Source: Candidatus Doudnabacteria bacterium (lineage in GTDB: Bacteria > Patescibacteriota > Doudnabacteria > UBA920). From it: 64,000 nucleotides of DNA. A program made the position numbers and the translations under genes. Below, one piece after another: positions 8,527-45,082 of this stretch. The DNA is taken from positions 766,305 to 830,304 of the forward strand of contig CAVYGQ010000001.1 of assembly GCA_963768175.1 (NCBI GenBank). The letters are read 5' to 3'. The notes under the pieces were generated by a model. The model was given only the letters and a program-made list of their open reading frames with translations. It was not told the origin of the DNA and ran no database searches. Position 1 is the stretch's first letter. The number at the start of each line of letters is the position of its first letter.

Positions 8527-8961
8527 TTATAAATTATTTATAAGGTTGAGTTCAATTGAATGAGGCTTCCTATTTCGTTTTAAATACTCTCTTCCATTAT
8601 ATGCCAGCAATACAATAGCATCGTACCCGAGTTTTTTTGCTTTTTTATACATCTTAGAATCTAAACTAATTCTGCGGTTATACCAACCATCACCATCTTT
8701 TAAAGCTCCGGCATATAACTTCTTAAATTCTTTTGGAAACAAATGTTTTAAAATCCTAATTTCGGAAGTGCCACAAATTGGATTCAAAATTTTAACCTTT
8801 TCTGGGATGTCATTCGGCCTGCCGTAAAACTCGGCGTGCTTATATGTGGATGCAAGAAACTTGCCTCTCTTGTTATAAGCATTTGGATCAAGAGGGGTTA
8901 CATGCCACCATTTGGATTTATTAACTTTGTCAATAAGAATTTTTTTTAGAGAAGCTCTCAT
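8527..8961 (-). CDS. hypothetical protein (144 aa) within the R-M operon
   Basis: Start overlaps the MTase stop by 4 nt; no recognisable motif. Confidence 0.4.
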   Translation of the reverse strand: MRASLKKILIDKVNKSKWWHVTPLDPNAYNKRGKFLASTYKHAEFYGRPNDIPEKVKILNPICGTSEIRILKHLFPKEFKKLYAGALKDGDGWYNRRISLDSKMYKKAKKLGYDAIVLLAYNGREYLKRNRKPHSIELNLINNL

Positions 8962-9908
8962 AATAGTTGCCGTTGCGCTATTTTTGTAATAGCTGTAAAT
9001 TGAATTTTGGCTTTATTGTCTTTTGTATTTTGAATTCGTTTTATAGGGAGCATTATTTTATCCATTTCTCGTAGTCTTTTTATTGACAAATCCAAATACT
9101 TCTCTTCCATATCAATACCGATAAACTTTCTTTTAAAAGCGCTGGCCGCAATTCCGGTGGTGGAACTTCCGGTAAAAGGATCCAAGATCACATCTCCTTC
9201 TTTAGTACTTGCCAAAACAATTCGCTTAAGCAAATCTATGGGCTTTTGGGTTGGGTGTTTACCGAACTTTTTTTCTGACTTTCTTGGGGTCAGAATAGAC
9301 CAAACAGAGCGCATCTGCAAGCCTTCTTTCTTTAAAAAATCTTCAGGCCATTGGCCGTTCTTCATTAAATCATAATTAAAGGTGTGCTTGGCCTTTTTAT
9401 CTTTTCGCGCCCAAATAATAGTTTCATGGCTAGCGGTAAAAAAACGGCAACTTAAATTTGGTGAGGCATTTGGCTTAAACCAAGAAATATCGTTTAGAAT
9501 GTGATATCCCAAAGCCTGCAATGCATGGCCGCATTGATAAATGGAGTGGTAAGTACCGCTAACCCAAAGGCTGCCTGCCGGTTTTAAAACTCTTTTACAT
9601 GCTTCTAGCCATTTAAAATGAAATTCGTAATCGTCCTTAAAACCTTTACTTTTGTCCCAGTTCCCTTTGTTTACGCTTACCATTCTTCCTGCGTGTACAG
9701 AAAAACCTCCATTAGATAAGTTGTATGGGGGGTCGGCAAAAATCATATCTACACTATTTTCCGGAAGCTGACTTAAAATATCCAGACAGTTTGCATGATA
9801 CAAAACAAAATTATCCTTAATAAAATAAGGTTTTTGGGCGATATTGGATAATATTTTCGCTCCGTTTTCCATTTTTTTTCTTTTGTTGATTTTTCGTCTT
9901 TTTTTCAT
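8958..9908 (-). CDS. beta-class amino DNA methyltransferase (N4-cytosine or N6-adenine), motif IV DPPY preceding motif I; true start probably the internal ATG (MENGAK, about 9872)
   Basis: MIFADPPYNL (DPPY); C-terminal ILDPFTGSSTTGIAA (FxGxG-like AdoMet-binding loop); the -10 box abuts the first ATG. Confidence 0.8.
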   Translation of the reverse strand: MKKRRKINKRKKMENGAKILSNIAQKPYFIKDNFVLYHANCLDILSQLPENSVDMIFADPPYNLSNGGFSVHAGRMVSVNKGNWDKSKGFKDDYEFHFKWLEACKRVLKPAGSLWVSGTYHSIYQCGHALQALGYHILNDISWFKPNASPNLSCRFFTASHETIIWARKDKKAKHTFNYDLMKNGQWPEDFLKKEGLQMRSVWSILTPRKSEKKFGKHPTQKPIDLLKRIVLASTKEGDVILDPFTGSSTTGIAASAFKRKFIGIDMEEKYLDLSIKRLREMDKIMLPIKRIQNTKDNKAKIQFTAITKIAQRQLL

Positions 9909-14071: not shown

Positions 14072-14078
14072 AGAGGAA

Positions 14079-14116
14079 GTGATTAGTGCTTAGTGGTTAG
14101 TGGTTAGTTTGTAGTG
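14079..14116. repeat. degenerate TAGTG-type tandem repeat immediately upstream of the rpoC start
   Basis: gtgattagtgcttagtggttagtggttagtttgtagtg. Confidence 0.7.
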
Positions 14117-14160
14117 CAGGCCATTGGCCTGCCTTGATGTAAATGAAATATTTTCTCTTC

Positions 14161-14259
14161 GGCGTCATTCTGAGGGAGTGCATCCGACCGAAGAATCTCT
14201 AACCTGCATGAGATCCTTCGCCCGCTTGCTTTTACCGATGACGGGCTCAGGATGACGCC
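14161..14259. mobile_element. MITE-like palindromic element copy 1 (99 bp) with 14-bp terminal inverted repeats GGCGTCATTCTGAG/CTCAGGATGACGCC
   Basis: Terminal inverted repeats plus internal gcatccgaccgaag/atgagatccttcg motifs shared with the copies at 25348, 27879, 29169 and 57073. Confidence 0.75.
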
Positions 14260-14345
14260 ACTAGTAGGTGCCCTTTACAACTCTCTCTCTGTGTGCTATT
14301 TTTAGCTGTCCGATTCTTTTCGGAATGCGAAGGAGGTGAATTACA

Positions 14346-14624
14346 GTGGCTAACGTCCACAGACTGCTTGAAAATGTGGGGAAGGAGCTTCGTGCCTCTC
14401 GGGCAGGAGTAGGCATGTATTACGCTGGAATGGGAGCCAGAGAGCAAGGCCAAGTGGTGGAGAAAAATATGGAAAGGACTGAAATCAGGCTGGCAAGTAT
14501 CGCTCTACGGCTGAAACAAATCCAGTACGCCGCCGACATCGGAGACCTCACCGAAATCAAGCGGCTGCTCGCCGAGGAGATCCCGGTCAATGTTCTGCAA
14601 GCCCCGCAAACCCAGCCTGCCTAA
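14346..14624 (+). CDS. hypothetical 92-aa protein (GTG start, AGGAGG RBS), GC-rich cargo of cassette unit 1
   Basis: aggaggtg RBS 8 nt upstream; higher GC than the flanks; no family match recognised. Confidence 0.35.
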   Translation: MANVHRLLENVGKELRASRAGVGMYYAGMGAREQGQVVEKNMERTEIRLASIALRLKQIQYAADIGDLTEIKRLLAEEIPVNVLQAPQTQPA

Positions 14625-14630
14625 CTCGCG

Positions 14631-14735
14631 CCCGCCGGCGCAGACCTGCTTTGGCATCCGTAGATGCCCAAGTGGCGCCGCGGCAACCCCTTTTTTGACC
14701 GTTCAATCCGGTCAGGAGGGGTAATTTTTTTGCCC
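14631..14735 (+). terminator. conserved structured 3' element (nested hairpins cggcgc...ggcatc-cgta-gatgcc...gcgccg) followed by a CCCC...GGGG hairpin and U-tract
   Basis: The copy at 15128..15232 shows compensatory changes (ggcatc/gatgcc versus gacatc/gatgtc). Confidence 0.45.
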
Positions 14736-14847
14736 ACATTTATTTACATATGTAGAGGGCAGTCCGCCATAGCCTCTTTGTCCGACGAAGCTTTAGCGTA
14801 GTCGGATTTATCGGCTTAATTTTGAAATTTGGTATTGAAAATTGTGT

Positions 14848-14930
14848 AGCCGACCCGAATCTACAAATTGTATCCGAATGTTCCGAATTCGTGTCATTCG
14901 CGTGTAATTCGTATATCCGGATCGGTTATT
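14848..14930 (+). promoter_or_regulatory. CGAAT-rich promoter-associated element containing the core GACCCGAATCTACAAA
   Basis: Core shared with 51953..51968 and 62897..62912 (reverse complement); followed by ccgaat/attcg repeats. Confidence 0.45.
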
Positions 14931-15001
14931 GCTCTTTACAAACCTCTCTCTTATGTGCTATTTTTAGCTGCCCGATTCTTTCGGAAGGTGAAGAGGGTTT
15001 A

Positions 15002-15109
15002 TGAAAAAAAACGATTGGCAAATCTTGATATTGTTGATAGTGGTAGTAATCGCGACAATCGTCACAGTTGGTGGGGTGATCCTGTCAGCCATCGCCGTCC
15101 ATCACTGAT
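15002..15109 (+). CDS. 35-aa hydrophobic (single-TM) peptide MKKNDWQILILLIVVVIATIVTVGGVILSAIAVHH
   Basis: ATG with gaagaggg RBS inside the conserved leader of unit 2; not in the track (under 60 aa). Confidence 0.35.
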
Positions 15110-15127
15110 TCGTCGCCTCCCCGCCAC

Positions 15128-15232
15128 GCCCGCCGGCGCAGACCTGTTTTGACATCCAAAGATGTCAGAGCGGCGCCGCGGCAGCCCCTATCCAGTCGTT
15201 CAAACCGACGGAACCTGGGGCTTTTCTTTTTG
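15128..15232 (+). terminator. second copy of the conserved structured 3' element plus U-tract
   Basis: cgcccgccggcgcagacctgttttgacatccaaagatgtcagagcggcgccgcgg ... ggggcttttcttttt. Confidence 0.45.
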
Positions 15233-15258
15233 TAAATTTTTTAAGGTTCTTTGTCTTA

Positions 15259-15347
15259 TCCCCCTCTTAATATAAGAGGGGGTAGGGGGTGATATTTATC
15301 TTTGCGATAATATCCCCTCCTAGCCTCCCCTTATTCTAAGGGGAGGA
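15259..15347. repeat. C/G-rich palindromic element (two hairpins: ccccctctta-ata-taagaggggg and cctcccc-ttattctaa-ggggagg), intergenic, downstream of rpoB
   Basis: Member of the same poly-C/poly-G palindrome family as 4928, 23448, 35291 and 59194. Confidence 0.65.
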
Positions 15348-15370
15348 ATATTGTACCTATGTCTTCTCCT

Positions 15371-15408
15371 ATTCACTATTCACTATTCACTATTGCCTAT
15401 TCGCTATT
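15371..15408. repeat. heptamer tandem repeat (TATTCAC)n abutting the rpoB stop codon
   Basis: attcactattcactattcactattgcctattcgctatt. Confidence 0.75.
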
Positions 15409-18400
15409 TCTTCTTCTCCTTTTTCGGCTTTTTCTTAACTTCATCATCAAACAAAGAAGTTTCGGCTAAAATCGGCACTACCGGCGGTAAATTAGGCACT
15501 ACGATTTCCGGCTCTTCCGCCGCACTGCTTACCGCACCGTCGCGGCCTAAAAGCTCTACATCCATACACAGCGACTGGAGCTCTTTTACCAATACGCGGA
15601 AAGACTCCGGGATGTTCGGCTTTTTAATAGCTTCCCCTTTTACAATGGCCTCATAAGTTTTTGAACGGCCAACCACATCATCCGATTTTATAGTCAGCAT
15701 TTCCTGCAAAGTGTGCGCCGCGCCATAGCCTTCCAGCGCCCAAACTTCCATTTCCCCAAAACGCTGGCCGCCGAACTGGGCTTTTCCGCCCAAAGGCTGC
15801 TGGGTAATTAGGCTATACGGGCCAGTACTGCGGGCGTGCATCTTGTCGTCAACAAGATGGTGAAGCTTTAAGAAATACATAACTCCCACGGTAACTTTTT
15901 CGTCAAAAGGCTCGCCGGTTTTGCCGTCGTAAAGCGTCACCTTGCCGTCTTGTGGGATGCCGGCCTTTTTAAGCTCTTCTTTAATTTTATGTTCGGGTAC
16001 CCCGTCTAAAACGGGAGTCGCCACTTTATAACCCAGGCGATGGGCGGCCATGCCCATGTGGGTTTCCAAAATTTGACCCAGGTTCATGCGGGACACAACG
16101 CCAAGCGGGTTTAAAATAATATCCACGGGAGTGCCGTCTTCCATAAACGGCAGGTCTTCCACCGGAATAATTTTGGAAATGACGCCTTTGTTGCCGTGGC
16201 GGCCAGCCATTTTGTCGCCGACCTGGACTTTGCGCAAAACCGCGACCGAGACCTGGATGCTGCGAATAACGCCGCTTTGCAGCTTGTCCCCGGCTTCGCG
16301 CGTAAACTGGCGGATGTTAACGACTTTTCCGTATTCGCCGTGCGGCAAGGTAAGGGAAGTATCTTTCACGTCCCGGGACTTTTCGCCGAAAATAACTCTC
16401 AGGAGTTTTTCTTCCGCGGTTAAATCGGTCTCACCTTTGGGCGTGATTTTGCCGACTAAAATATCGCCAGCTTTTATCTGGGCACCAATGCGGATAATGC
16501 CGTTCTCGTCCAAATCCTTTAATTTTTCCTCGCCGACATTGGGAATATCCCGCGTTACCTGCTCCGGCCCGAGTTTGGTATCGCGCACGTCTATTTTAAA
16601 ATCATCAATGTGAATGCTGCTATAACGATCCTGCTGCACCAAGCGTTCGGAAATTAAAACCGCATCTTCGTAGTTGCCTCCCTCCCAAGACATAAAGGCC
16701 ACCAGCACATTTTGGCCCAAAGCCAGCTCGCCGCGATCCGTGGAGGCGCCGTCGGCTAAAATTTCGCCTTTCTTAATAGTCTGTCCCTTATTTACGCGGG
16801 CAATTTGGTTAATAGAGGTAGCGGAATTGGTACGCAAAAATTTCAGCAAAGGGTATTCTTTCTTTTTGCCTTTTTCGCCGACCACAATAATTTTTTCTCC
16901 GGTCACGGAAGTTACGATGCCGTCTTCATCGGCCAAAACCACGGTGCCACTGTCGCGCGCGGCCTTGCCTTCCATGCCCGTGCCGACTATGGGCGCTTCG
17001 GGCTTAATGCAGGACACGGCCTGGCGCTGCATGTTACTGCCCATAAGCGCGCGGTTGGCATCGTCGTGTTCCAAAAACGGAATCAACGAAGTGGTAACGG
17101 AAATAATTTGTTTTGGGGAAACATCCAAATAGTCTATGTCGTCGGTAGAAGCCATGGTCGGCACGGCGCGCACCCGGACGCTGGCTCTTAAATCCGCAAA
17201 GTGCCCGCGGTCATCAAGGTTAATATTGCTTTGGGCGATAATCAGCCGCTCTTCTTCATAAGCGTCCAAATATCTAATTTTATCCGTAACGCGGGGCTTA
17301 ATGCGGATTTCCAAAAGCTGGTGGTTTTTTGCCACTTCTTTGGCTTTGCCTGCGGTAATGGTTTCTCCGGCGGTAACTATTACGTCGCCTTTTTCGTCTT
17401 TAATATCATAAAGGGAAATTTCGTCTGCCAGATCCTTGCCGTCGTTTTTGGCGGATTTTTTTACCACCCGGTAGGGCGTTTCAATAAATCCAAAATTATT
17501 TACCCGCGCGTAAGTGGCCAAGTGGGCTACCAGCCCGATGTTCGGTCCTTCCGGCGTGGTAATCGGGCAAAGCCGCCCGTAGTGGCTGTGGTGCACGTCG
17601 CGGACTTCAAATCCGGCGCGCTCACGGGAAAGCCCTCCCGGCCCCATGGCAGACAGCCTTCTTTTGTGCTCCAGCTCGGCCAAAGGATTAGTCTGATCCA
17701 TAAATTGCGACAGCTGCGAAGAGGAAAAAAATTCCTGCATGGTCGCCACAATCGGCCGGACATGAATAAGCTGGGCCGGAGTCACGGTATCTAAATCCGC
17801 CAAGGACATGCGGTCTTTGGCAATTCTGGCCATGCGGGCAAGGCCTACGCGGAAACGGGCCTGGATAAGTTCGCCTACGGCCCTGACGCGGCGGTTAGCC
17901 AGGTGGTCAATATCATCCGGTGTGCCTTGGGAGTTGTTTAATTTAATTATTTCGCGAACGGCTATGACCAAATCTTCTTTGGTCAAAATCTGCCTATCTC
18001 GCTCTCTTAAAGCCGAGGCGGGGCTTTCGTTACCATCAACGTGCAAACGCTGATTAAACTTATAGCGGCCGACCGCGGAAAGATCATAACGTTCGGTGTT
18101 AAAAAACATTCCGGAAATTAAAGACTTGGCATTGTCTACCGTGGCTAAATCACCGGGTCTGATTCTTTTATAAACTTCCTTATAGCCTTCGTCCGGGTTG
18201 GTAGAGGCGTCCTTTTCCAAAGTGTTTTGGATATATTTGGTGTCCGGGTCGGTATCGACATCGGCAAAAGCGGCTAATATTTCTTCATTGCTGCCTAAGC
18301 CAAAAACTCGCAGTAGCGCGGTTATGGGGATTCTTCTTTTGCGGTCGATTTTAACGCCAATCACGCCGGTGGCGTCGGTATCCAGTTCCAGCCAGGCGCC

Positions 18401-19321: not shown

Positions 19322-19669
19322 CTATGCCGTACCGCTTTGCTTAATATAATCGCTAATCCGCTGCTGGTCTTCCCTCGCTTGCTCACCTTTAAAATACAGT
19401 TCAATAAAGACTATTTCTTTCTTGTTGGGGTGATAGGCATAAATTATCCTTAGTGTATTTTTCTTCAAAAATCGGCAAAAAAATCGCGCTTTGGCAATTT
19501 TTAACTCGCTGTTTTGGAATAAAACAGCAAAATGCTTGTCAGTTCCAAGCGGCACTTCTTCCAAAACTTTCTTGAACACTTCCAAATCTTCGGGCAGGGA
19601 AAGGTATTTTTTGCCCAGCCGTTTGCAATTTTTGGTAAATTCAGGTAATTCATTAAAGTTCATCGTCAT
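19322..19669 (-). CDS. RelE/ParE-superfamily (HigB-like) toxin; start assumed at the internal ATG (MTMNFNEL), overlapping the upstream antitoxin stop
   Basis: C-terminal RIIYAYHPNKKEIVFIELYFKGE pattern typical of RelE/ParE; 17-nt overlap with the HTH gene. Confidence 0.5.
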   Translation of the reverse strand: MTMNFNELPEFTKNCKRLGKKYLSLPEDLEVFKKVLEEVPLGTDKHFAVLFQNSELKIAKARFFCRFLKKNTLRIIYAYHPNKKEIVFIELYFKGEQAREDQQRISDYIKQSGTA

Positions 19670-20429
19670 AATTGCGGACCGAATGTTCCTGATCACGGTA
19701 AAAAACACTTTCGTAATCTATTGCTTCTCCGGGTTTATGAACCATCCAAGGTATATCTGAATGGGAATATTTGCTTAATTCCGAAGCGGATTTATCGGAA
19801 AGCCGGTTTAACACCTCGTCAATATGTGCCAATTCCCGCGCGGACAATACTGTTAAATCCGCCTCTTCTCTCGGTAAGTATTTTTTTTGCTCATACTGAA
19901 AATAGCTGCTTTTAACTTTTTCCAGTTCATTTTGCGCTTCCATTTCTTTAACCAAACTCGAAAATTCCCTGGGAGTGGGTCCAAAATGATTGCGGATATA
20001 AGTCGCGCCGGTTAATTGTTCCTCAAACTTTTCATAAAAATCAAAATCAACAAAATATAACAACTTATAAAGTGCAGTTTCACCTATGTTGGGTTTGGCG
20101 CCGACTTTCCCCAAAATATATAACAAAACACTTTTAAATTTGTCAACGTTCAACTTGGGGACATTAATTCTAACTTCATTTTCAATTTCCGATTTTTTTG
20201 CCCTATTATCTAATTTTACCTTATGCTCGATAGGCGAAATTTGCGCCAAAAAATCGTCTAAAGGCAAACCAAAAAGCTCCGCGAGTTTTTGAGCTTCAGA
20301 TACTGTTAGCTCCCTTTCCCCTTTTTCTATTTGCATATAAGTGGGGCGAGAGACATTAATTTTTTGGGACACAAAATTCTGGGAAAATTTCGCATTTTCC
20401 CTCAATTTTTTGAGATATAGTCCAGTCAT
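19653..20429 (-). CDS. XRE-family HTH antitoxin-like protein with a C-terminal roughly 170-aa domain (possibly DUF4065/Panacea-type)
   Basis: N-terminal LYLKKLRENAKFSQNFVSQKINVSRPTYMQIEKGERELTVSEAQKLAELFGL HTH_XRE; first gene of a two-gene operon behind a consensus promoter. Confidence 0.6.
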   Translation of the reverse strand: MTGLYLKKLRENAKFSQNFVSQKINVSRPTYMQIEKGERELTVSEAQKLAELFGLPLDDFLAQISPIEHKVKLDNRAKKSEIENEVRINVPKLNVDKFKSVLLYILGKVGAKPNIGETALYKLLYFVDFDFYEKFEEQLTGATYIRNHFGPTPREFSSLVKEMEAQNELEKVKSSYFQYEQKKYLPREEADLTVLSARELAHIDEVLNRLSDKSASELSKYSHSDIPWMVHKPGEAIDYESVFYRDQEHSVRNYDDEL

Positions 20430-20843: not shown

Positions 20844-21935
20844 TTATTTTCCGGATTTAGTTCTATTATCATCTACGCACAGCATCTGGCAATTTTCCGC
20901 CGTAGTCGCCCCTCCCTTGCTCCACGGTTTGATATGGTCGGCTTCCATTTCGGAAATATCATATTCTTTTTTACAAAACGGGCAAATGCCGTTTTGCCGC
21001 TCATACGCCTCACGCTTCATTTTGTCGGTAAAAGCACGGATTGAAAGGTATTTTTCTTGTCTCGTTAAAATATATGGGTAAATACCGGATTTTTTAGTTA
21101 CATCTTCGTCCTGCATTAACTCTTTAATTTCGGCTTCCAGTTTGCCGACATTCTGTTTCTTGTCTTTAAATTCGTTATACAGTTCGCCCCACTCTACACT
21201 ATTCATTTCCCGGCGATAATTCGTAAAAGTTTTTCGCACCCAATCAATTACTTCTTGAAAATACTCCCATAACTCATCGGCATTTTTATTATGCTGATGC
21301 TTAGCCATGTAATCTTCTATTTTGCCGTTGTTAATCCATGAAAGCGCGGTTTCCAAATATTCCTGCCGAATTGGCGAACCGCTTACCAACTGCCCGCCGT
21401 CGTTGGCCAGCAGATACGCCGCGCAATGCGTTTTGCTGAACTTTAGTTTTGCGTCACTAAGCCACGGCCCTGTGTAAACCGCGTTACGGATTTCCTGGTC
21501 GGTAAGTTTTTCGCCGGCGATGTTAATAATCCTGAACCAATCCAGCCGCTCTTTATCCGTGCCCTCGCAAAAATAAATCATCAGCTCGTAATCCAAAATC
21601 CGGTTTTGTTCTTCGTCGGTTAGATTATGAAAATACATCTCGTTAAGTGAAAAATCACCGGCAACATATTGCCCGATGCTAATGGTGCGCTGTTGGCCGT
21701 CCAAAACTTCAAAATTGCCGGAATCATTTTTCATCCAGTACATTACATTAAGCGGGAAGCCATTTTTGATGGTTTTAATAACGGCATTGCGCTGCTGCTC
21801 CTTATAAACAAACTCCCGCTGATATTTTGGCCGGATATCCAGCTTGCCGCTAAAAGCTACTACGCCCTCCTCGGCGCTGTCTTTATAACCAGCAATTACT
21901 TTTCGTATAGTGATGCGATGTAAATCTATTTTCAT
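20844..21935 (-). CDS. DUF262 (ParB/Srx-like, DGQQR motif) plus C-terminal HNH nuclease; GmrSD-like candidate restriction component
   Basis: LDGQQRTISI motif; HNH signature CPFCKKEY...ADHIKPWSKGG...NCQMLCVDDNRTK. Confidence 0.7.
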   Translation of the reverse strand: MKIDLHRITIRKVIAGYKDSAEEGVVAFSGKLDIRPKYQREFVYKEQQRNAVIKTIKNGFPLNVMYWMKNDSGNFEVLDGQQRTISIGQYVAGDFSLNEMYFHNLTDEEQNRILDYELMIYFCEGTDKERLDWFRIINIAGEKLTDQEIRNAVYTGPWLSDAKLKFSKTHCAAYLLANDGGQLVSGSPIRQEYLETALSWINNGKIEDYMAKHQHNKNADELWEYFQEVIDWVRKTFTNYRREMNSVEWGELYNEFKDKKQNVGKLEAEIKELMQDEDVTKKSGIYPYILTRQEKYLSIRAFTDKMKREAYERQNGICPFCKKEYDISEMEADHIKPWSKGGATTAENCQMLCVDDNRTKSGK

Positions 21936-21936
21936 A

Positions 21937-23004
21937 CTAATTGATTACTTTCTTATTTTTTATGATAACTCGCGCGTAAGGAACGTCAACGGCTCCATTT
22001 GTAATCATGTACAAATCACCATCAACAGCTCCTCTTTTTTGAATTTCTTTCCTGTATTTTTTGTGGTTTTCTTTATAGGGCTTAACCCCAATTTCTATTC
22101 CCGAATTGGATATTCCCAAACCGATAATCTCAAATTGCTCCGGATTATATTTATCAAGAAAGGTAATAGGCACCCCTATAGCACCATTGTAGTCTGCCGG
22201 GATTTCAGAAGTTTTATTAACGTTAATAGCATCAAAATTTTCATACTTGGGATATTCTGTGGGAGTATATTTTTTATAAAGTAAAAAATTTTCATGACGC
22301 TCTTCGTAATCAAGGTTTGTAAACCAACGCACGCCTTTAACGCGAATATACTTGTGCCCATCCGCATCAACACGATAACTTGCCGCGTTCAGAGGATAAT
22401 CATCTGGTACCTGAAATTCACGATCGCCGCTATGGATACTCGCTCCAAGCCACATATTATTTTCTTTTATTAACTTAAAACACTCTTTATAAGTAATTGC
22501 ATTTACATTTCCAATTATCAAAAATTTCTTATTGTACTCCACCAACTGCGCAATATATTCTCTTAACAAAGAAAACGGCGGGTTGGTTACCACGATGTCG
22601 GCTTCTTTCAGCAGTTCAATACACTCCTGGCTTCGGAAGTCACCGGTGCCTATCATTTTGGTCATAAAATCATGCGGGTCGGGAACACGGCTGCCCTTTT
22701 TGCCGCCGGTGTATTCCAGTTTATATGGCGGTTCGTGGGTAAAAAGGTTGGCTTCTTTGTAATGAGTGGCAATGAGTTTCTTAAGTCCCAGTTCCGCAAA
22801 ATTTATGCTAAAATATTTCACAAAATTGCTTTCTTTCGGGTCGTCGCAATTACAAAACACCACTTTACCGCGAAACTGGTCTTTGTAGTGCTTAAGCTCG
22901 TTTTCAATATCGGCAAGCTGGGTATAAAATTCGTCTTTTTTTGCCCTGCTAGCCGTATGTAGATTTTTGTTTAAAAATTTCTTTTCCATGATTATTTTTA
23001 CCAA
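21937..23004 (-). CDS. putative N6-adenine DNA methyltransferase (gamma-like motif order: DEFYTQ motif X, then NPPF motif IV)
   Basis: DIVVTNPPFSLL (NPPF); N-terminal DEFYTQL resembling the (G/D)xFYTP AdoMet-region motif; lies upstream of the DUF262-HNH gene. Confidence 0.6.
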   Translation of the reverse strand: MVKIIMEKKFLNKNLHTASRAKKDEFYTQLADIENELKHYKDQFRGKVVFCNCDDPKESNFVKYFSINFAELGLKKLIATHYKEANLFTHEPPYKLEYTGGKKGSRVPDPHDFMTKMIGTGDFRSQECIELLKEADIVVTNPPFSLLREYIAQLVEYNKKFLIIGNVNAITYKECFKLIKENNMWLGASIHSGDREFQVPDDYPLNAASYRVDADGHKYIRVKGVRWFTNLDYEERHENFLLYKKYTPTEYPKYENFDAINVNKTSEIPADYNGAIGVPITFLDKYNPEQFEIIGLGISNSGIEIGVKPYKENHKKYRKEIQKRGAVDGDLYMITNGAVDVPYARVIIKNKKVIN

Positions 23005-23104: not shown

Positions 23105-24136
23105 ATGGACAATGTTATTGAAGTGCAAAACCTAAAAAAAGTCTACCCCTCGCCCAAAGGCAAACAGCCACTGGAAGCTTTAAAGGGTGTGTCTTTTTTT
23201 GTGGAAAAAGGCGAGGTCTTCGGCATTTTGGGACCCAACGGCGCGGGGAAGACCACGACTCTGGAAATTATAGAATGTTTAAAACCGCAGACTTCCGGGG
23301 AAGTTGCGGTTTTGGGGTTTGATAATGTTAAATCTCCCGATGATATAAAAAAACGCATCGGCGTGCAGCTGCAGTCCAGCCAATATTTGCATCATTTATC
23401 TTTAGGGGAACTGCTGGATTTGTTTGCCTCATTTTATGGAAATAAATCACCCCTCCCTAACCCTCCCCCTCCAGGGGAGGGAATAAACACCGCAATAAGT
23501 TCCTCCCCCTTGAGGGGGGAGGCTAGGTGGGGGTGGACAAAGGATGATAAAAAAAACCTATTACAGCTAGTGAGCTTAGAAGACAAAGAACATGCCGAAT
23601 TTGCCAACCTTTCCGGCGGGCAAAAGCAGCGCTTCACCATTGCCACCTCCTTGGTGCATGAGCCACAAATTTTGTTTTTGGACGAACCCACCACCGGGCT
23701 TGACCCGAAAGCGCGGCGCGACATGTGGCAACTGGTTAAGACCATTAATGCCCGCTCAATCACTATTGTCTTAACCACGCACTACATGGAAGAGGCGGAA
23801 TTTTTATGCCACCGCGTGGCCATTATGGACCAGGGGAAAATTTTGGAAATTGACGAGCCAAAAAAATTAATAGACCGCCTGTCGGAAACCACGCAGATTT
23901 CCTTTTTTACGGACAGCCGCCTTGACCAAAACTTTTTCCGCACATTGCCGGAAATAAAAAAAATCCACGCCAGCTATCCCAAAGTCATTTTGGAAATCAC
24001 TTCTTTGGATAAAATTTCCGCGGTGGTAAATTTATTAAAACAGCACAGCATAGTTTTTTATGGATTTACCGTCAAAACCGCCACTTTGGAAGACGTCTAT
24101 TTGAAACTTACGGGAAAGGAGTATGAAGAAGAATAA
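23105..24136 (+). CDS. ABC transporter ATP-binding protein with an in-frame 30-aa insertion encoded by a palindromic element
   Basis: Walker A GPNGAGKTTT; signature LSGGQKQR; Walker B ILFLDEPTTGLD; the insertion NKSPLPNPPPPGEGINTAISSSPLRGEARWGW sits between the Q-loop region and the signature. Confidence 0.9.
   Translation: MDNVIEVQNLKKVYPSPKGKQPLEALKGVSFFVEKGEVFGILGPNGAGKTTTLEIIECLKPQTSGEVAVLGFDNVKSPDDIKKRIGVQLQSSQYLHHLSLGELLDLFASFYGNKSPLPNPPPPGEGINTAISSSPLRGEARWGWTKDDKKNLLQLVSLEDKEHAEFANLSGGQKQRFTIATSLVHEPQILFLDEPTTGLDPKARRDMWQLVKTINARSITIVLTTHYMEEAEFLCHRVAIMDQGKILEIDEPKKLIDRLSETTQISFFTDSRLDQNFFRTLPEIKKIHASYPKVILEITSLDKISAVVNLLKQHSIVFYGFTVKTATLEDVYLKLTGKEYEEE
23448..23536. repeat. full-length C/G-rich palindromic element (89 bp; terminal inverted repeats cacccctccctaa / ctaggtgggggtg; two internal hairpins) inserted in-frame in the ABC ATPase gene
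   Basis: ccctcccc-ctcca-ggggaggg and cctccccc-ttga-gggggagg hairpins; GC composition far above the host gene. Confidence 0.75.
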
Positions 24137-24149
24137 TTAACCGACACCA

Positions 24150-24220
24150 ATACGCAAATTGGACGCGAATGATGCTAATTCGTATCATTAGCGTGACATT
24201 CGTAGATTAGCGTCGCCTAT
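24150..24220 (+). promoter_or_regulatory. conserved roughly 70-bp CGAAT-rich leader ending GTCGCCTATATG (start codon included); paralogous to 54450..54527
   Basis: About 85% identical to the ruvB leader; contains the palindromes acgaattcgt and gctaat-tcgtatc-attagc. Confidence 0.5.
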
Positions 24221-24964
24221 ATGAAATCTTTTATTGAATTATTCAAGGCAAATTTCAAAATGTTCTACCGGGAAAAGGAAGGCTTTTACTGGACGGTGTT
24301 AATGCCAACTTTTATTTACATCGCCCTGTCCATTTTGCCGATTGGCAAAACCATTGGCGTCAATTTAAAATACTCCAGCTACGTGCTCCCGGGCATTATT
24401 GCCATGACTATTATGCAAGGCGGCATTTACAGCCTGGCTTATTGGATGGTGGACTTAAAGTCCCGCGGCATTATTAAGCGCCTGCTGGCCACCCCGCTTA
24501 AGCAGTGGCAACTGGCCTTGAGCCTGGTTGGCGCCAGGCTGGTAGTGGTAATTTTCCAGGTAATTATTCTAACCCTGCTGGGGATTTTAATTTTTCATGC
24601 CAGCTTTGCCGGCAACGTAACATCCACGCTTGTTTTGGTGCTCTTGGGCGGCGCGATTTTTTTGCTCTGCGGCCTGCTCATTTCCACTTTCGCCAAAAGC
24701 TATGACGCCGCCGCGCCGATTACCTCGGCTATTGCCCTGCCGCTGACTTTTTTGGGAAACATTTTTTACCCCATAGAAGCACTGCCTAAGGCCTTGCAAA
24801 TTTTTGCGCGCCTTTTGCCCATTACCTATCTGGCCGACGGCCTGCGCCAGGCATACTTGTATCCGTTTAACTTTGCCGTGATTGGCAAAGATATTTTTAT
24901 TCTTGCTTTGTGGCTGATAGGGATGCTGGTTGTGACCATATCGCTATTTAGATTAAAAGAATAG
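24221..24964 (+). CDS. ABC-2 family transporter permease
   Basis: Six hydrophobic segments; follows the ABC ATPase in the same operon. Confidence 0.75.
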   Translation: MKSFIELFKANFKMFYREKEGFYWTVLMPTFIYIALSILPIGKTIGVNLKYSSYVLPGIIAMTIMQGGIYSLAYWMVDLKSRGIIKRLLATPLKQWQLALSLVGARLVVVIFQVIILTLLGILIFHASFAGNVTSTLVLVLLGGAIFLLCGLLISTFAKSYDAAAPITSAIALPLTFLGNIFYPIEALPKALQIFARLLPITYLADGLRQAYLYPFNFAVIGKDIFILALWLIGMLVVTISLFRLKE

Positions 24965-25347: not shown

Positions 25348-25433
25348 GGCGTCATTCTGAGCCCGAATGCATCTGAAGGCGAAGAATCTTTTATGAGATC
25401 CTTCGGTCGGATGCACTCCCTCAGGATGACACC
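25348..25433. mobile_element. MITE-like element copy 2 (86 bp)
   Basis: ggcgtcattctgag ... ctcaggatgacacc terminal inverted repeats; internal atgagatccttcggtcggatgcac. Confidence 0.75.
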
Positions 25434-29914: not shown

Positions 29915-30441
29915 TCAGGCGGCGCCTGGTGGAAAAACCCAGCCCAGGCGCTTAGCCCACCCCCTCAAACGTGAGCGAGGGGCCAATAAGGGGGGCCCAG
30001 GCCCCCCAATTGGAAAGCAAATTTGCAAAGGAACCCGGCGGCCAAGCGGCGGTTGCCCGCGGGGCACCCGCATCACAATCGGAGCAGGCCCTTGTGGTCA
30101 CGCTTCAATGGATTGCGGTAATACCTACCGCTACCGCCGGGGACAAATTTAAAGAGGAATTGGGCACACAGCCTCGCGCAGAGGTTTTGCGCCCTTGAGA
30201 CACGCCGAATACCTATCAGACCCAGCTGGTATGCAGACGACGCGCCTCCCCAAGAGGGTCACAGCACAACTACTTTTTTTCTGCATTACCGTGGCAAATG
30301 CTCCAGCGACAGAAAGCAGAGATAAGTACTTATGCCGGGAAGAGACTTTTCCCATGACCCCCAGGATATATTTTAGGCCTATTATTGGCCGCCGGATGCT
30401 ACCCCCTCCTTACCCTACCCCAGCATCCGGTTCTTTTTTTT
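29915..30441 (+). ncRNA. candidate structured ncRNA of about 500 nt, about 60% GC against a roughly 43% background, with multiple stable hairpins and an intrinsic terminator; class unresolved (rnpB, ffs and ssrA to be tested)
   Basis: GC-rich hairpins (ccccctcaaacgtgagcgagggg, gggggcccaggcccccc, ggcgcctgg...ccaggcgc); GGAAAG/AGGAACCCGG and GCGGUAA motifs; terminal ccggatgct-loop-agcatccgg plus T8; the track ORFs here are spurious. Confidence 0.35.
30392..30441 (+). terminator. intrinsic terminator closing the GC-rich RNA region
   Basis: 9-bp stem ccggatgct/agcatccgg followed by ttctttttttt. Confidence 0.6.
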
Positions 30442-34738: not shown

Positions 34739-35473
34739 TTAAATATCAAAATTTTTAAGCTTTTCTTTCCGCTCCACAACTTCCGCTTCCGTAATATCAC
34801 TCGACTTAATTTTGCAATGTTCAAAAATTTGCCGTTCTATTTGCCGCAATGAGTTTTCAAAATTATCACGCTCTTGAGTATCATTTTTATGATGCTCATA
34901 CCTCTTCCTTAAATCCGCAAATCTTTCTTCCAAACTTATTATCCCCTTGGGACCCACGCGATCATCCGCGTACTGGCAAATTTTTTTGCCAAAATCCGGG
35001 CTTTGTGCATTATCCGGCCCTTGATCAAAGCCCACGCAATCCACTAATTCTCTAATCCTCTGATTTACTCCCAGTTCTGCCACTATTTTTACCGTCGCGT
35101 TATGGCTGCCCGTGCCGTATTTTTTGATAAACTCCTGCTTTACATTTTCCCAAAAAATTTGATCTTCTGGTGGCTTTGCAAAAACTGCCGGATACAACTC
35201 TGCGGTTTGGTTTAAATCAAACTTAACAATATTTCCCATGTCATGCAGCAGGCAAGCGGCCACGATATCATCACGGTTAATCCGTATTATTCCCTCCCCC
35301 TTGCGGGGAGGGTTAGGGAGGGGGGTAAAATGCTCACAAATCATCTCCGCCACCGCCGCCACAGTCAGCTGGTGCTCCATTAGCTGCGGCATAATTTGGT
35401 ATTTTTTGTAGATTTCTAAAATGTTCACCCTGTTAGAAATTAATGTTAAATTTAATGCGATTCGCAAATTCAA
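34739..35473 (-). CDS. HD-domain phosphohydrolase with an in-frame palindromic-element insertion (NPPRKGEGIIRI)
   Basis: H...LLHDMGN metal-binding motif; element at 35291..35326. Confidence 0.6.
   Translation of the reverse strand: MNLRIALNLTLISNRVNILEIYKKYQIMPQLMEHQLTVAAVAEMICEHFTPLPNPPRKGEGIIRINRDDIVAACLLHDMGNIVKFDLNQTAELYPAVFAKPPEDQIFWENVKQEFIKKYGTGSHNATVKIVAELGVNQRIRELVDCVGFDQGPDNAQSPDFGKKICQYADDRVGPKGIISLEERFADLRKRYEHHKNDTQERDNFENSLRQIERQIFEHCKIKSSDITEAEVVERKEKLKNFDI
35291..35326. repeat. C/G-rich palindromic element (hairpin ccctcccc-cttgc-ggggaggg plus a terminal-inverted-repeat-like ttagggagggggg) in-frame in the HD gene
   Basis: Same family as 23448..23536. Confidence 0.7.
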
Positions 35474-36864: not shown

Positions 36865-39651
36865 CTAAATCTCTAATTTTTTCATCTCTCCCCAATTATC
36901 CCCGACTTTGGCTTCCACCTGTACGGGAACGGAAAGTTGAATAGCGCTTTCCATTAAGGGAACAAGCTTTTTTGCCCAATATTCCACTTTGCCTTCGGCC
37001 ACTTCAAACACTAGTTCATCGTGCACCTGCAAGAGCATTCGACAATCGGTTGTATGTTGTAAGTTGTATGTTGTAAGTTCTTTGTGGATATTAACCATGG
37101 CGACTTTGATTACATCGGCGGCCAGGGACTGTATGGGAAAATTCACGGCCGCGCGCTCGGCTGCGGCGCGGACAAAAAATTGGGACGACTTTATTTCCGG
37201 GAACTTGCGGATGCGCCCAAGCTCATTACGCACAAAGCCTTCTTCATTAACCTGCAATTTTATCTGCTCTATATATTCTTCCACTTTCGGGTAAGCCGCA
37301 AAATATTTGGCGATAAACTCCTTGGCCTCGGCGCGGCTAACCTGCCCAATGCGCGATGAAAGCCCAAAACTGGACAGCCCGTATAAAATCCCAAAGTTAA
37401 TAGTCTTGGCATCTCGCCGCATATCGGGAGTGACTTCGCCGGCCTTCACGCCGAAAATGCTCACGGCGGTATTGGTATGGATATCTTCCCCGTTCTTGAA
37501 TACGCGGAGCATATTTTGGTCTTTGGCCAAATGCGCCACAATGCGCAGTTCAATTTGGCTGTAATCTATGGATAACAGCTTAAAGCCTTTTTCGGCCACA
37601 AAGGCCTGGCGGATTCTGCTTCCCAACCCCTGCCCGCGAATTGGAATGTTCTGTAAATTCGGATCCGTGGAGGACAGTCTTCCTGTAGCCGCAATGGTCT
37701 GGTTATAGCTGGTATGAATCCTCCCTGTTTTTTTATTGACCAATTCCGGCAACGCCAACAAATAAGTTGACTGCAGTTTGGCCAATTCGCGGTATTCCAT
37801 TATTTTAGCTATAACCGGATGCTGGCCAAGCATTTTTTCCAGCTCCCCGGCCGCGGTGGAAAGGCCGGTCTTGGTCTTGCGGTTGTTTATGGCTTCCAGC
37901 TTTAACTTATCAAACAATACCTCCTTCATCTGCTTGGGGGAATTGAGGTTAAACTCCCGACCGGCTAATTTGTAAATTTTGCTTTCCAAATCTTTAATGT
38001 CTATTTCCGCTTCCGCAGAAAGCCGATTTAAAAATTTGGCGTCCAGCTTAATGCCGTTTAGCTCCATATTGGCCAAAACTTCCACCAGCGGCATTTCAAT
38101 ATCGTAAAAAACTTTTTCCAAACCCTCTTGTTTTATTTGCGGCTCAAATAATTGCTTAAGCCGCAGCGTCATATCCACGTCTTCACAACAATACCAAGAA
38201 ACTTTTTCCGCCGGCACCCGGTCCATGGTAATCTGGGTTTTCCCTTTGCCAATTAAATCCTCAATCGGCTGCGTCTGGTAGCCCAGCTCATTAAATGCCA
38301 GCGCCTCCAAATTATGCTGGCGCGTGCCAGCGTTGAGCAAATACGAGGCAATCATGGTATCAAAATAAATAGGGTTAAGAGCTAAGTTATTTGTGCTAAG
38401 TATCTGTAAATCATACTTAATATTGTGGCCGATTTTTTTGATGTGTTGATTTTCAAAAACCTTTTTTAATTCACCCGATGCCAAAACCAAATCCGCCGTG
38501 ACATAATAAGCCTGCCCCGGTTTTACACAAAAGCCAACGCCCACCAATTTGGCATCAGTGGGGTTTAAGCTGGTGGTTTCTGTGTCTATAACAAGTTCTT
38601 TGGCGGATGATAAAATTTTTATAACTTTGTCCAGCTTATCTTGCGTGTCAATTAAATTATATTCCTGCTTAAATTTAGCTTCTACCTTAGCCGGCAGAGG
38701 TATCCCCTCTGTAGCAGAGGGGACACCTCTGCCTTCCACGCCCGCTAACTGCCCACCTTTTGGCAATTTATTAATAAGCGACCGAAACTCCAATTCCTGG
38801 AACAGCCTAACTGTACTTTGTAAATGCGCCGCGTCCAAATCATACTTAAGAATATTAATGTCCAGCGGCACGTTGCGGTCAATTACCGACAATTGGTAAG
38901 ACATGCGCGCTTGGTCTTCCTGTGCTTTGAGCAGTCCCAAAATCCGCGGTTTAATTTTATTGCCGGTTTTTTCTTTCTTTATGGCCTCGTATAATCCGTT
39001 CAGCGATTTAAATTTCTTAACCAGCTCTTCCGCGGTCTTTTCGCCAATGCCTTTGACTCCAGGAATGTTGTCGCTGGGGTCGCCGCGCAGGGCTTTATAG
39101 TCTACCATTTGGTCGGGGTTCAGCCCATAACGCGCGCGTACGGCTTTCTGGTCGTAAACCACCACGTCGGTAATGCCTTTGCGCATAGTGTAAACTTTTA
39201 TTACCTGGTTCACCAGCTGCAAAGTGTCCAAATCGCCAGTGACAATTATGACTTCGGCTTCCGGATTTTTTTTATGCAAGCTCAAGGCCAAAGTCCCCAG
39301 ACAATCGTCCGCCTCAAACCCCTGTTTTTCAAAAATCGGGATATTTAGCGCGCCTACGACTTGTTTGACGCGAGGGATTTGGTCATAAAGTTCCTGGTCG
39401 GCCTTAACCCGTGTTGCTTTGTATTCCTTATACTGCTCATGCCTAAAGGTGGGTCCGGCTAAATCAAACGTGCAGGCAATGTGCGTGGGTTTAATGTCGG
39501 CAATAGCCTTTAACAATATCAAAGTAAACCCGTAAACGGCGTTGGTCTGCTCGCCGCTTTTGGTGTTTAAAACCGGGATGGCGTGGTAGCCGCGGTGGAT
39601 TAGCGCATTACCGTCTATTAGCATGTAGCGTTCGGTTTTGGGGAAAGTCAT
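36865..39651 (-). CDS. polA: DNA polymerase I (5'-3' exonuclease, 3'-5' exonuclease-like and polymerase domains); start set at MTFPKTERYMLIDGN
   Basis: Pol A motifs ...RRDAKTINFGILYG... and QVHDELVFEV; carries in-frame repeat insertions at 37031 and 38704. Confidence 0.95.
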   Translation of the reverse strand: MTFPKTERYMLIDGNALIHRGYHAIPVLNTKSGEQTNAVYGFTLILLKAIADIKPTHIACTFDLAGPTFRHEQYKEYKATRVKADQELYDQIPRVKQVVGALNIPIFEKQGFEADDCLGTLALSLHKKNPEAEVIIVTGDLDTLQLVNQVIKVYTMRKGITDVVVYDQKAVRARYGLNPDQMVDYKALRGDPSDNIPGVKGIGEKTAEELVKKFKSLNGLYEAIKKEKTGNKIKPRILGLLKAQEDQARMSYQLSVIDRNVPLDINILKYDLDAAHLQSTVRLFQELEFRSLINKLPKGGQLAGVEGRGVPSATEGIPLPAKVEAKFKQEYNLIDTQDKLDKVIKILSSAKELVIDTETTSLNPTDAKLVGVGFCVKPGQAYYVTADLVLASGELKKVFENQHIKKIGHNIKYDLQILSTNNLALNPIYFDTMIASYLLNAGTRQHNLEALAFNELGYQTQPIEDLIGKGKTQITMDRVPAEKVSWYCCEDVDMTLRLKQLFEPQIKQEGLEKVFYDIEMPLVEVLANMELNGIKLDAKFLNRLSAEAEIDIKDLESKIYKLAGREFNLNSPKQMKEVLFDKLKLEAINNRKTKTGLSTAAGELEKMLGQHPVIAKIMEYRELAKLQSTYLLALPELVNKKTGRIHTSYNQTIAATGRLSSTDPNLQNIPIRGQGLGSRIRQAFVAEKGFKLLSIDYSQIELRIVAHLAKDQNMLRVFKNGEDIHTNTAVSIFGVKAGEVTPDMRRDAKTINFGILYGLSSFGLSSRIGQVSRAEAKEFIAKYFAAYPKVEEYIEQIKLQVNEEGFVRNELGRIRKFPEIKSSQFFVRAAAERAAVNFPIQSLAADVIKVAMVNIHKELTTYNLQHTTDCRMLLQVHDELVFEVAEGKVEYWAKKLVPLMESAIQLSVPVQVEAKVGDNWGEMKKLEI
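37031..37060. repeat. heptamer tandem repeat (TTGTATG/TTGTAAG) x4 inside the polA coding sequence (encodes LTTYNLQHTT)
   Basis: ttgtatgttgtaagttgtatgttgtaagtt. Confidence 0.75.
38704..38733. repeat. C/G palindromic element (cccctctg-tagc-agagggg) in-frame in polA (encodes GVEGRGVPSATEGIPLP)
   Basis: 7-bp perfect hairpin, GC-rich relative to polA. Confidence 0.55.
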
Positions 39652-42879: not shown

Positions 42880-42949
42880 ATATGTTAGTTCTTGCCCCCA
42901 CACCAAAACGCATTATTAAGCGTTCTAATTTAAAGGCAGTTATTTAATT
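42316..42949. repeat. 634-bp segment (5' leader plus signal peptide plus N-module of paralog A) nearly identical to 44343..44976 of paralog B
   Basis: Direct comparison finds only a few SNPs clustered in the signal-peptide codons plus one 1-nt indel. Confidence 0.85.
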
Positions 42950-43005
42950 GTTTTTACTTAATGCTAATTTTTTGCTTTTGTGGTTGCCCACTAAGAATTT
43001 AAAGG

Positions 43006-44906: not shown

Positions 44907-44976
44907 ATATGTTAGTTCTTGCCCCCACACCAAAACGCATTATTAAGCGTTCTAATTTAAAGGCAGTTATTTAATT
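44343..44976. repeat. second copy of the 634-bp near-identical segment (paralog B)
   Basis: See 42316..42949. Confidence 0.85.
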
Positions 44977-45082
44977 TTATTTTGGTTTCTCTCACCCCCC
45001 ATACTTAATTTTGGTGTGGGGGTGAATTTCAAAGGTTTCGCACTAATTTTGGCGCGAACCTAAATTTAAAACTTGTGACTAT

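Follow-up and report, generated by a model that had tools for sequence, protein, structure and literature searches.

Triplex-motif repeats in the reading frames of unrelated genes of a Candidatus Doudnabacteria bacterium

Introduction

How can a short, G/C-rich and strongly structured repeat lie inside several unrelated protein-coding genes without breaking their reading frames? The question is raised by a 64-kb stretch of DNA (the window in what follows) from a ~949-kb contig, whose best protein matches belong to Candidatus Doudnabacteria and to the 'Patescibacteria group' and whose source is apparently a metagenome-assembled genome. An earlier note, made from the sequence of the window, had described a family of palindromic elements inserted in frame into several genes, in the manner of the Rickettsia palindromic elements (RPEs). 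A repeat family in frame within several unrelated genes was indeed recovered, both by a hidden Markov model (HMM) and by a triplex finder. Six copies of one repeat were found at four loci of the window, where none is expected by chance, and four of these six units are in frame in three genes, encoding an ABC ATPase (a pair of units), an LCAT-like protein (a single unit) and an HD hydrolase (a single unit). Copy counts given here cover the window. In our view these are probably G/C-rich repeats with an intrastrand-triplex motif that landed in genes, were kept when frame and loop allowed it and are translated as disordered loops.

Detection of the repeat family

The pattern CCTCCCC-N3-9-GGGGAGG has five matches in the window and none in 100 shuffles. 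GTDB was scanned with a hairpin-plus-tail pattern, one genome per species, which yielded at least 120 loci. The training set of the HMM consisted of 129 copies, all from other phyla. Their MAFFT alignment was ragged at the 5' side, for which reason no covariance model was built; a loop-gapped alignment was used for the HMM. This model of foreign copies recognised five full units in the window, with E values from 5e-11 to 8e-6, and confirmed the family there. The matches are the left half of the ABC insert (23446-23485, minus strand, E=5e-11), the HD copy (35287-35326, plus strand, E=1e-10), the right half of the ABC insert (23496-23538, plus strand, E=2e-9), the LCAT copy (4925-4964, plus strand, E=3e-9) and a copy in the rpoB-rpoC spacer (15314-15348, minus strand, E=8e-6).

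The triplex finder is sequence-agnostic and looks for three 8-nucleotide (nt) segments related by a mirror rule, with at most one mismatch. It returned exactly six units in the window, at 4928-4959 (plus), 15260-15292 (plus), 15312-15345 (minus), 23450-23481 (minus), 23502-23533 (plus) and 35292-35323 (plus), with no mismatch in any 8-nt segment, and none in 20 Markov-1 simulated windows. The sequences described in the earlier note are all present where it had placed them. The four genic units sit in intact open reading frames (ORFs), of which they occupy stop-free frames. Rfam and tRNA scans of the window gave no match.

Anatomy of the unit

Each unit is ~32-36 nt long and comprises three segments: a pyrimidine arm (CCCTCCCC or CCTCCCCC), a complementary purine arm and a G-rich third segment. 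The loop between the two arms measures 4-9 nt and the one before the third segment 2-3 nt (TTA, CTA or TA). The third segment is the purine arm in mirror image, with T or A opposite the purine-arm A. In the CCCTCCCC subfamily, the purine arm GGGGAGGG is followed by TTA and then by GGG(T/A)GGGG, and in the GGGGGAGG subfamily the purine arm is followed by CTA and then by GG(T/A)GGGGG. In all six window units the Watson-Crick arms are perfect over 8 nt and the mirror segment is free of mismatches, and the same rule is followed by at least six distinct stem sequences when related loci are counted with the window.

The mirror symmetry extends to other phyla. The inner G-run has the same length in the purine arm and the third segment in 124 of 128 foreign copies, outer G-runs of equal length are seen in 101 copies, and opposite A there is T (96 copies), A (31) or C (one), hence A or T in 127 of 128; mirror positions, mirrored base and outer G-runs had been left unconstrained in the search pattern behind these copies. 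Units are flanked by TTC at the 5' side of the stem and by TTA or CTA with the G-rich segment at its 3' side. Foreign copies are conserved beyond the search pattern, with TTC at the 5' side and G/A-T-G/A at the 3' side. Neither in foreign copies nor in window units was a GTAG or CGTC tag found beside the hairpin.

The earlier note had interpreted the elements as hairpins bounded by terminal inverted repeats, an interpretation that has to be abandoned. The alleged terminal repeat mirrors the adjacent G-arm instead of being a complement, and it is also present on the single units of the LCAT and HD genes, which have no partner; the three-segment reading resolves this difficulty. G opposite G, and A or T opposite A, are triplets allowed in a purine-motif (reverse-Hoogsteen) triple helix. 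The repeats belong to the BoxC/PIT/TM class of purine-motif intrastrand triplex repeats, the triplex being predicted for the window stems from their sequence. The exact TM_ECO consensus of Escherichia coli, CCCTCNCCC-N3-6-GGGNGAGGG-N3-GGGNGAGGG, is not matched by the window units, whose stems are of 8 nt with a single A, so that they are members of the class and not of the TM_ECO subfamily.

Inserts in three unrelated genes

The first host gene (23105-24136, plus strand) is an ORF with a PF00005 match that encodes the ATPase of an ABC-2-type transporter (343 residues) and is followed by a permease gene. Alignment with the empty site of a related locus (L001) reveals a net gain of 96 nt in the window, that is a composite insert of ~96 nt (23446-23541) which adds 32 codons (SPLPNPPPPGEGINTAISSSPLRGEARWGWTKD) and whose ends are uncertain by a few bases. 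Bases 23448-23536 read CACCCCTCCCTAA-CCCTCCCCCTCCAGGGGAGGG-AATAAACACCGCAATAAGTT-CCTCCCCCTTGAGGGGGGAGG-CTAGGTGGGGGTG. The insert is made of two inverted units with their third strands outward, both detected by the HMM and by the triplex finder. The left unit (23450-23481, minus strand), CCCTCCCC-TGGAG-GGGGAGGG-TTA-GGGAGGGG, is read antisense as PLPNPPPPGEGI, and the right unit (23502-23533, plus strand), CCTCCCCC-TTGAG-GGGGGAGG-CTA-GGTGGGGG, is read sense as SSPLRGEARWG. The spacer of the pair is ~20 nt between the outer ends of the C-arms, or 13 nt when each unit is taken to include its conserved TTC-side flank.

The pair lies between the Q-loop region and the signature motif, as the earlier note had stated, and PDB homologues, which align at residues 5-112 and from 146 onward, skip residues 113-145. 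The segment between LDLFASFY and LLQLV has 40 residues in the window protein, ten or fewer in 65 of 119 orthologues and eight in the closest ones, which are 89% identical outside the insert. In the AlphaFold model the predicted local distance difference test score falls below 50 only at residues 115-143, in a loop between helices 100-110 and 146-155, in agreement with the proposal that the Pro/Gly-rich peptides lie at loops. The ABC_tran domain scores 94.6 bits with the insert and 96.7 bits without it. As RNA the insert may form a single long hairpin (-56.7 kcal/mol, z=-3.8) and as DNA two local hairpins with an outer stem closing both. At the same site other orthologues hold quite different inserts, derived from other repeats.

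The second host gene (4354-7317, minus strand) encodes a secreted LCAT-domain protein of 987 residues, identified by PF02450 and NF047446 matches and by its orthologue in a sister genome (L122). A single unit of 36 nt (4926-4961, core 4928-4959, plus strand), CCTCCCCC-TTCTA-GGGGGAGG-CTA-GGTGGGGG, runs antisense to the gene in its C-terminal OmpL47-type barrel domain and adds 12 codons, TPPPSLPLEGGG. The L122 orthologue lacks exactly TPPPSLPLEGGG, leaving a gap of 12 residues. With the insert, the OmpL47-barrel model places 67 residues on 55 positions for 54.8 bits; without the 12 residues it becomes collinear, 55 on 55, for 61.6 bits, a gain of 7 bits.

In the third host gene, a single unit was found antisense to an HD-domain hydrolase (34739-35473, minus strand; database protein P0121, 242 residues, PF01966 match, 120 orthologues). 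This unit of 36 nt (35290-35325, core 35292-35323, plus strand), CCCTCCCC-CTTGC-GGGGAGGG-TTA-GGGAGGGG, adds the 12 codons PLPNPPRKGEGI between the first His helix and the HD motif. The segment measures 19 residues in the window and seven in the modal orthologue, and the empty site of L129 displays a clean gain of 12 codons in the window after ENFK. Here too, Pfam scores go up when the insert is removed. The alignment of orthologues that the earlier note had called for therefore identifies the peptide as an insertion in all three host genes, by orthologues, domain models and the sister genome.

Single units are open in two to four of the six frames (the LCAT unit in only two) and the pair in two of six, and the host genes use open frames. 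The same repeat DNA is read in differing frames and on differing strands in different genes.

Intergenic pair and sites set aside

The remaining two units form a pair in the rpoB-rpoC spacer (15260-15345), with third strands inward and a predicted fold of -27.5 kcal/mol (z=-6.6). The first unit (15260-15292, plus strand), CCCCCTCT-TAATATA-AGAGGGGG-TA-GGGGGTGA, was detected by the triplex finder only, and its stem is quite unlike the others; the second (15312-15345, minus strand), CTCCCCTT-AGAAT-AAGGGGAG-GCTAG-GAGGGGAT, was detected by the triplex finder and is the only one of the two that the HMM detects. The spacer as a whole (14072-15403) is dense in repeats and measures ~1.3 kb in the window against ~216 nt in L124. 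It contains direct repeats (14629-14691 and 15127-15189), an 85-nt palindrome and the triplex-motif pair, and tandem CTATTCA heptamers at ~15370-15410 reach the 3' end of rpoB.

The earlier note had listed four in-frame gene copies and three related copies elsewhere. The ABC, LCAT and HD copies and the intergenic one at 15259-15347 stand, whereas the polA copy (38704-38733) and those at 59194-59240 and 30401-30421 were matched by neither the HMM nor the triplex finder and were rejected as members. The polA site belongs to an unrelated, single-copy and near-perfect palindrome of 41 nt (38693-38733, minus strand, z=-6.5), in frame, with 19-nt arms, one mismatch and a 3-nt loop. It falls within the hypervariable polA linker that joins the 5'-nuclease domain to the 3'-5' exonuclease domain. 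The region 59194-59240 is a nested double hairpin (z=-5.1) that either lies immediately before a TrmB-like regulator gene or overlaps its start, and 30385-30440 has a stem of 9 bp, a C-rich loop of 21 nt and then a run of T, which looks terminator-like. A possible TsaE insert (~52250-52340) was dropped for want of significant structure.

Gain, loss and reuse of sites in related genomes

The earlier note had suggested a check between strains; between related genomes, presence of the units varies: the LCAT unit is missing in L122, and the polA inserts differ. The polA of L122 (85% amino-acid identity) contains three in-frame inserts without counterpart in the window polA, namely a triplex-motif dimer with third strands outward as in the ABC element, a single unit and a longer linker segment. 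The polA linker is wholly different in L122 and L126, each with other repeat units there. In-frame units were found in the polA of relatives at L122 5470-5551, L122 7845-7878 and L126 1584-1615, their positions falling in the 5'-nuclease domain, the linker and the polymerase domain. Over the related loci fetched, eight of 11 units are within long ORFs, to be compared with four of six intragenic units in the window.

The HD site is reused. It is filled in L122 and in L125-L128 and empty in L129. At the DNA level, three of seven genomes have the CCCTCCCC-type unit, two have the CCCTCTCCC (E. coli-type) unit at the same position and in the same frame, and one is empty; the remaining genome has the CCCTCTCCC type in a different frame and with a different junction. 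The L125 unit at this site is an exact TM_ECO match, that of L126 is a version with a 10-nt stem, and the L127 copy has a decaying third segment. In other orthologues the site holds peptides from at least two further repeat families.

Copies in other phyla

Among the matches listed, copies occur in Cyanobacteria, Chloroflexota, Planctomycetota, all classes of Proteobacteria, Nitrospirae, Bacteroidota, Saccharibacteria and others. A near-invariant 33-nt sequence is found across many phyla, from Patescibacteria to E. coli and Nostoc. The L125 unit matches repeats left unannotated in 4540 of 5426 complete E. coli genomes, with 97% identity over 35 nt and a median of 7 places per genome. For the window unit, the similarity to E. 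coli repeats is ~82%, with a median of 2 matching places in each genome. The window unit is also found on large replicons of Rhizobium, Azospirillum and Deinococcus. The repeat is almost absent from phage records.

Outside the phylum, the in-frame state was checked with Pfam in the three best cases, open-frame coverage being uninformative in high-GC genomes. From ~130 copies sampled, two were confirmed within domains and a third in an interdomain region. The two are in-frame dimers, one in the Ig-like domain of a Rhodocyclales PepN (aminopeptidase N; L053, ~1391-1422) and the other within an AMP-binding enzyme (L115, ~7038-7068), each with an intact ORF and domain matches on both sides. In Nostoc (L090, ~3249-3281) a cluster of repeat-derived peptides is located N-terminal to an RluA-type pseudouridine synthase domain. 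In a Gastranaerophilales locus (L047), units at 246-276 (plus) and 4679-4709 (minus) are inverted and 4.4 kb apart with four ORFs between them, and their flanks are near-identical over at least 45 nt on both sides, like parts of long terminal inverted repeats.

Relation to known repeats

Repeats of this kind first became known from E. coli under the name BoxC, and later as the PIT elements of Maher's group (Hoyne and Maher 2000, 2002). The survey of 'TM' by Holder et al. 2015 (PMC4666352), from which the E. coli consensus given above comes, showed triplex formation in vitro, noted palindromic pairs and reported the E. coli repeats as 'always intergenic', without transposase association and marking unstable loci. 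Like the BoxC/PIT/TM repeats of E. coli, other Proteobacteria and Cyanobacteria, the window units have a C-rich arm, a 3-6-nt loop, a G-rich arm, a 3-nt loop and a mirror third strand. They also share with them a length of ~31-37 nt, an occurrence as single units or palindromic pairs, the lack of an associated transposase, in the window as far as 35 ORFs were scanned, and variable loci, and the L125 variant at the HD site joins the two groups by its exact TM_ECO match and its identity to E. coli copies. They differ from TM_ECO in the stem, which has 8 nt and a single A (CCCTCCCC or CCTCCCCC, against CCCTCNCCC in TM_ECO), and, unlike the E. coli repeats, they reside in a Patescibacteria host where most copies are within genes (four of six in the window, eight of 11 in relatives).

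With RPE-1 to RPE-10 (Ogata et al. 2000, 2002), the window units have in common that they are structured repeats in frame in unrelated, often essential genes of a reduced genome, that they add peptides at surface positions and that they vary between related genomes. The RPE-like behaviour claimed by the earlier note is in this respect upheld, with in-frame insertions absent from orthologues, loop peptides and variable presence. RPEs are nevertheless palindromes of ~100-150 bp with family-specific conserved peptides, confined to Rickettsia and relatives, whereas the window units are no such conserved-peptide palindromes and have 32-36 nt (~96 nt for the pair), a G/C-rich composition, triplex symmetry and a cross-phylum distribution, in a comparison made on size, composition, symmetry, reading frames and distribution.

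Repetitive extragenic palindromic sequences (REPs) and the REPINs they form (Di Nocera et al. 2013, PMC3733652; Bertels and Rainey 2011, PMC3116915) are likewise 20-40-nt stem-loops with inverted doublets forming larger hairpins. REPs are sometimes intragenic, including in DNA polymerase I, and then add 20-30 residues (PMC3733652). REPIN-type inverted doublets are seen in the ABC insert and at 15260-15345, two of the four loci holding single units. The window units differ by the missing GTAG/CGTC tag and by an extra mirror segment, and no REP-associated tyrosine transposase (RAYT) was found among the 35 window ORFs scanned, which are part of those in the window. Moreover, REP sequences are lineage-specific and co-evolve with RAYT, whereas the window repeat is near-identical across phyla. 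Finally, RU-1, RU-2, RU-3 and ERIC (Delihas 2007, 2011, PMC2759123, PMC3184786) are also small and non-autonomous, with open frames and occasional in-frame fusion to the host gene, but they are of the 100-170-bp terminal-inverted-repeat type without triplex symmetry, and their intragenic copies are rare exceptions and not the majority.

The earlier note had also held that in-frame palindromic insertion is rarely reported outside Rickettsia. This is contradicted by the intragenic REPs of several species (PMC3733652) and by the PepN and AMP-binding dimers described above; small structured repeats in frame are known from Rickettsia and, as REPs, from several species (PMC3733652, PMC10969869). In the literature searched there was no report of triplex-motif repeats within genes or of such insertions in Patescibacteria, and nothing specific was found on in-frame repeats in bacteria of the candidate phyla radiation (CPR). 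The element class is known and widespread; less expected are the mostly intragenic copies, the reuse of the same protein loops by several repeat variants and families and one unit conserved beyond coding needs.

A possible course of gain and retention

The repeats would be non-autonomous, their gain and loss depending on a DNA process of the host; recombination or repair where a fold blocks replication would be the most plausible one. A gene-dense genome offers little intergenic space, and landing sites would be mostly genes. Purifying selection would then retain the copies whose length is divisible by three (36 nt for single units, ~96 nt for the pair), which are in one of the two to four stop-free frames and which fall in a permissive loop. 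Such copies would be translated as disordered Pro/Gly-rich segments, presumably roughly neutral at the protein level. Hot spots may arise from the small number of permissive loops and perhaps from old units attracting new ones.

A spread at the DNA level without an element-encoded enzyme, by recombination, gene conversion or repair, is favoured, in keeping with reports that the genome is unstable around E. coli copies. The selfish mobility put forward by the earlier note receives no support as far as a transposase-driven spread is concerned: no transposase domain (Y1_Tnp or other) was found among the 35 ORFs scanned, which are part of the ORFs of the window, itself 64 kb of ~949 kb.

Several points weigh against the proposed explanation. 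The counts come from 64 kb of a ~949-kb contig and are not genome-wide. It is from presence and absence among genomes that the units appear to be mobile, and no target-site duplication or exact boundary could be defined at the ABC and LCAT sites because the empty-site flanks are diverged or too A-rich. The published triplex experiments (PMC4666352) were made with the E. coli sequence, for which support in vivo is itself weak. The GGGGAGGG-TTA-GGGTGGGG subfamily is also a canonical G-quadruplex motif. Lastly, the HD unit and its counterpart in L122 (10102-10143) are identical at 39 of 39 nt in HD genes that are 67% identical at the nucleotide level, and the variants at the HD site keep all three segments matched; both observations fit selection or targeted conversion better than neutral junk. 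Within the unit, 12 of 12 synonymous codons are the same; in the rest of the gene this holds for 73 of 124 codons of shared residues (P ~0.002). Constraint on the DNA, gene conversion and recent re-insertion are candidate causes of this identity.

Alternative explanations

The identity of the HD unit and its matched variants hint that the DNA as such is constrained or undergoes conversion, in few comparisons and with one genome pair. They are the starting point of an alternative according to which selection or a targeted process would maintain the units for a role at the DNA level, as a programmed pause site of replication or transcription, a hot spot of recombination or variation or a homing site to which further units are drawn. 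Different stems occur at one orthologous HD site with the three segments still matched, one loop each in the ABC ATPase and the HD protein hosts several variants and families, and the repeat is near-invariant across phyla, all of which would agree with such a role. Yet the majority of orthologues are insert-free, the host genes are unrelated to each other, the L127 copy is losing its third segment and the experiments of Maher and of Holder attributed no promoter, terminator or regulatory role to the repeat in E. coli. The reuse of hot spots could also be explained by the scarcity of permissive loops, and the conservation statistic comes from one genome pair. On balance a DNA-level role appears unlikely. 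In its more specific form, a structure-recognising process (homing or gene conversion guided by the three-segment fold), or selection for a pause or for recombination, would install and maintain units at specific loops of essential genes. Either would explain the excess conservation of the HD unit, the matched replacement of stems and a cross-phylum 33-nt sequence without known mobilising enzyme; we regard this form as quite unlikely.

The units could instead be true palindromic selfish elements with terminal inverted repeats, akin to miniature inverted-repeat transposable elements, RPEs or REPINs, moved in trans by a transposase, for example one of the RAYT/IS200-type tyrosine transposases, and in frame by chance. 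In the ABC copy two inverted units with a short spacer between them fold into one long hairpin, as in a REPIN, further inverted pairs are known at 15260-15345, in the polA of L122 and in the Rhodocyclales PepN, and the in-frame behaviour and patchy distribution recall RPEs and intragenic REPs. However, the single LCAT and HD units bear the supposed terminal repeat without a partner, and this segment mirrors the neighbouring G-arm and co-varies with it. The GTAG/CGTC tag is missing beside the hairpin, no transposase domain was seen among the scanned ORFs, and neither transposase nor integrase is found near the E. coli copies (Holder et al. 2015, PMC4666352). One 33-nt sequence is shared by many phyla, whereas REP/RAYT pairs are lineage-specific. 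This origin is distinctly improbable.

It could also be asked whether the conserved fold is a hairpin/G-quadruplex switch instead of a triplex, since GGGGAGGG-TTA-GGGTGGGG offers four G-tracts, of which the first two overlap with the hairpin's 3' arm. Four repeats of G3+N1-7 can be read in the commonest subfamily, and a similar arrangement, with a potential quadruplex next to a complementary C-tract, is on record from archaea, with mention of E. coli and Deinococcus (PMC8044849). Nevertheless, GGGGGAGG-CTA-GGTGGGGG (units at 4928 and 23502) and stems like AGAGGGGG/GGGGGTGA are without four G3 tracts. The mirror position (124/128) and the A or T base (127/128) are not needed by a quadruplex, and nuclear magnetic resonance and circular dichroism of the E. 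coli unit pointed to a triplex (Holder et al. 2015, PMC4666352). The quadruplex, which we rank below the triplex, is very unlikely.

That the segments are ancestral low-complexity linkers or artefacts of assembly or gene calling is hardly credible and largely refuted: although the window is apparently metagenome-assembled and Pro/Gly-rich linkers are common, the same HD unit is present in independent JGI and ENA assemblies (L122, L123), most orthologues are insert-free, domain scores are better without the segments, the DNA repeat also occurs between genes and in other phyla, and each insert is flanked on both sides by an intact, conserved ORF.

Significance

The insertion of triplex-motif repeats into reading frames brings together two bodies of literature so far separate, one on the widespread BoxC/PIT/triplex motifs, which have no known function or means of mobility and were thought to be intergenic, and the other on in-frame insertions of the Rickettsia type. 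If the pattern holds genome-wide, CPR bacteria would be natural experiments with many dated gains, losses and replacements at defined codon positions, from which the spread and selection of repeats could be inferred, and the share of protein length variation or of extra loops due to such repeats would become measurable in these organisms. For annotation and structure prediction, segments like PLPNPPxxGEG in conserved proteins are to be taken as repeat-derived inserts and not as domain features.

Other features of the window

A second repeat family consists of ~85-nt, AT-richer palindromes with CGAATTCG-like cores, all intergenic in the window (14847-14933, 24138-24224, 51951-52022, 54447-54531 and 62876-62924). 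The copy at 24138-24224 lies between the gene of the ABC ATPase and that of the permease; in L001 and L124 these two genes overlap. Peptides like RGMTRNLTRNDAE, found at the HD hot spot of other genomes, resemble translations of this palindrome family. In parallel, a 39-nt element, GGCGTCATTCTGAGGGAGTGCATCCGACCGAAGAATCTC, is present in two copies (14161-14199 and 25395-25433) that are 92% complementary. The copy at 25395-25433 provides the last four codons and the stop of a Mur-ligase gene (…MVSS*) and overlaps the start of a TsaD-like fragment ORF.

Three large paralogous ORFs occupy the minus strand (39757-42906, 43006-44889 and 45216-48527) and share blocks of 240-300 nt with 82-99% identity, for example 42311-42610 and 44339-44638; the sign of the GC skew flips across 39757-48527. 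Defence-type genes are found around the ABC operon, encoding an EcoRI-type adenine methyltransferase (21937-23004), a GmrSD/HNH endonuclease (20844-21935), an HTH and SocA/Panacea antitoxin-like protein (19653-20429) and an N6/N4 DNA methylase (8958-9908). At the right end of the window, dnaN (62915-63967), recF (61731-62825) and a DciA-family gene (61363-61710) indicate that the window is probably near the replication origin.

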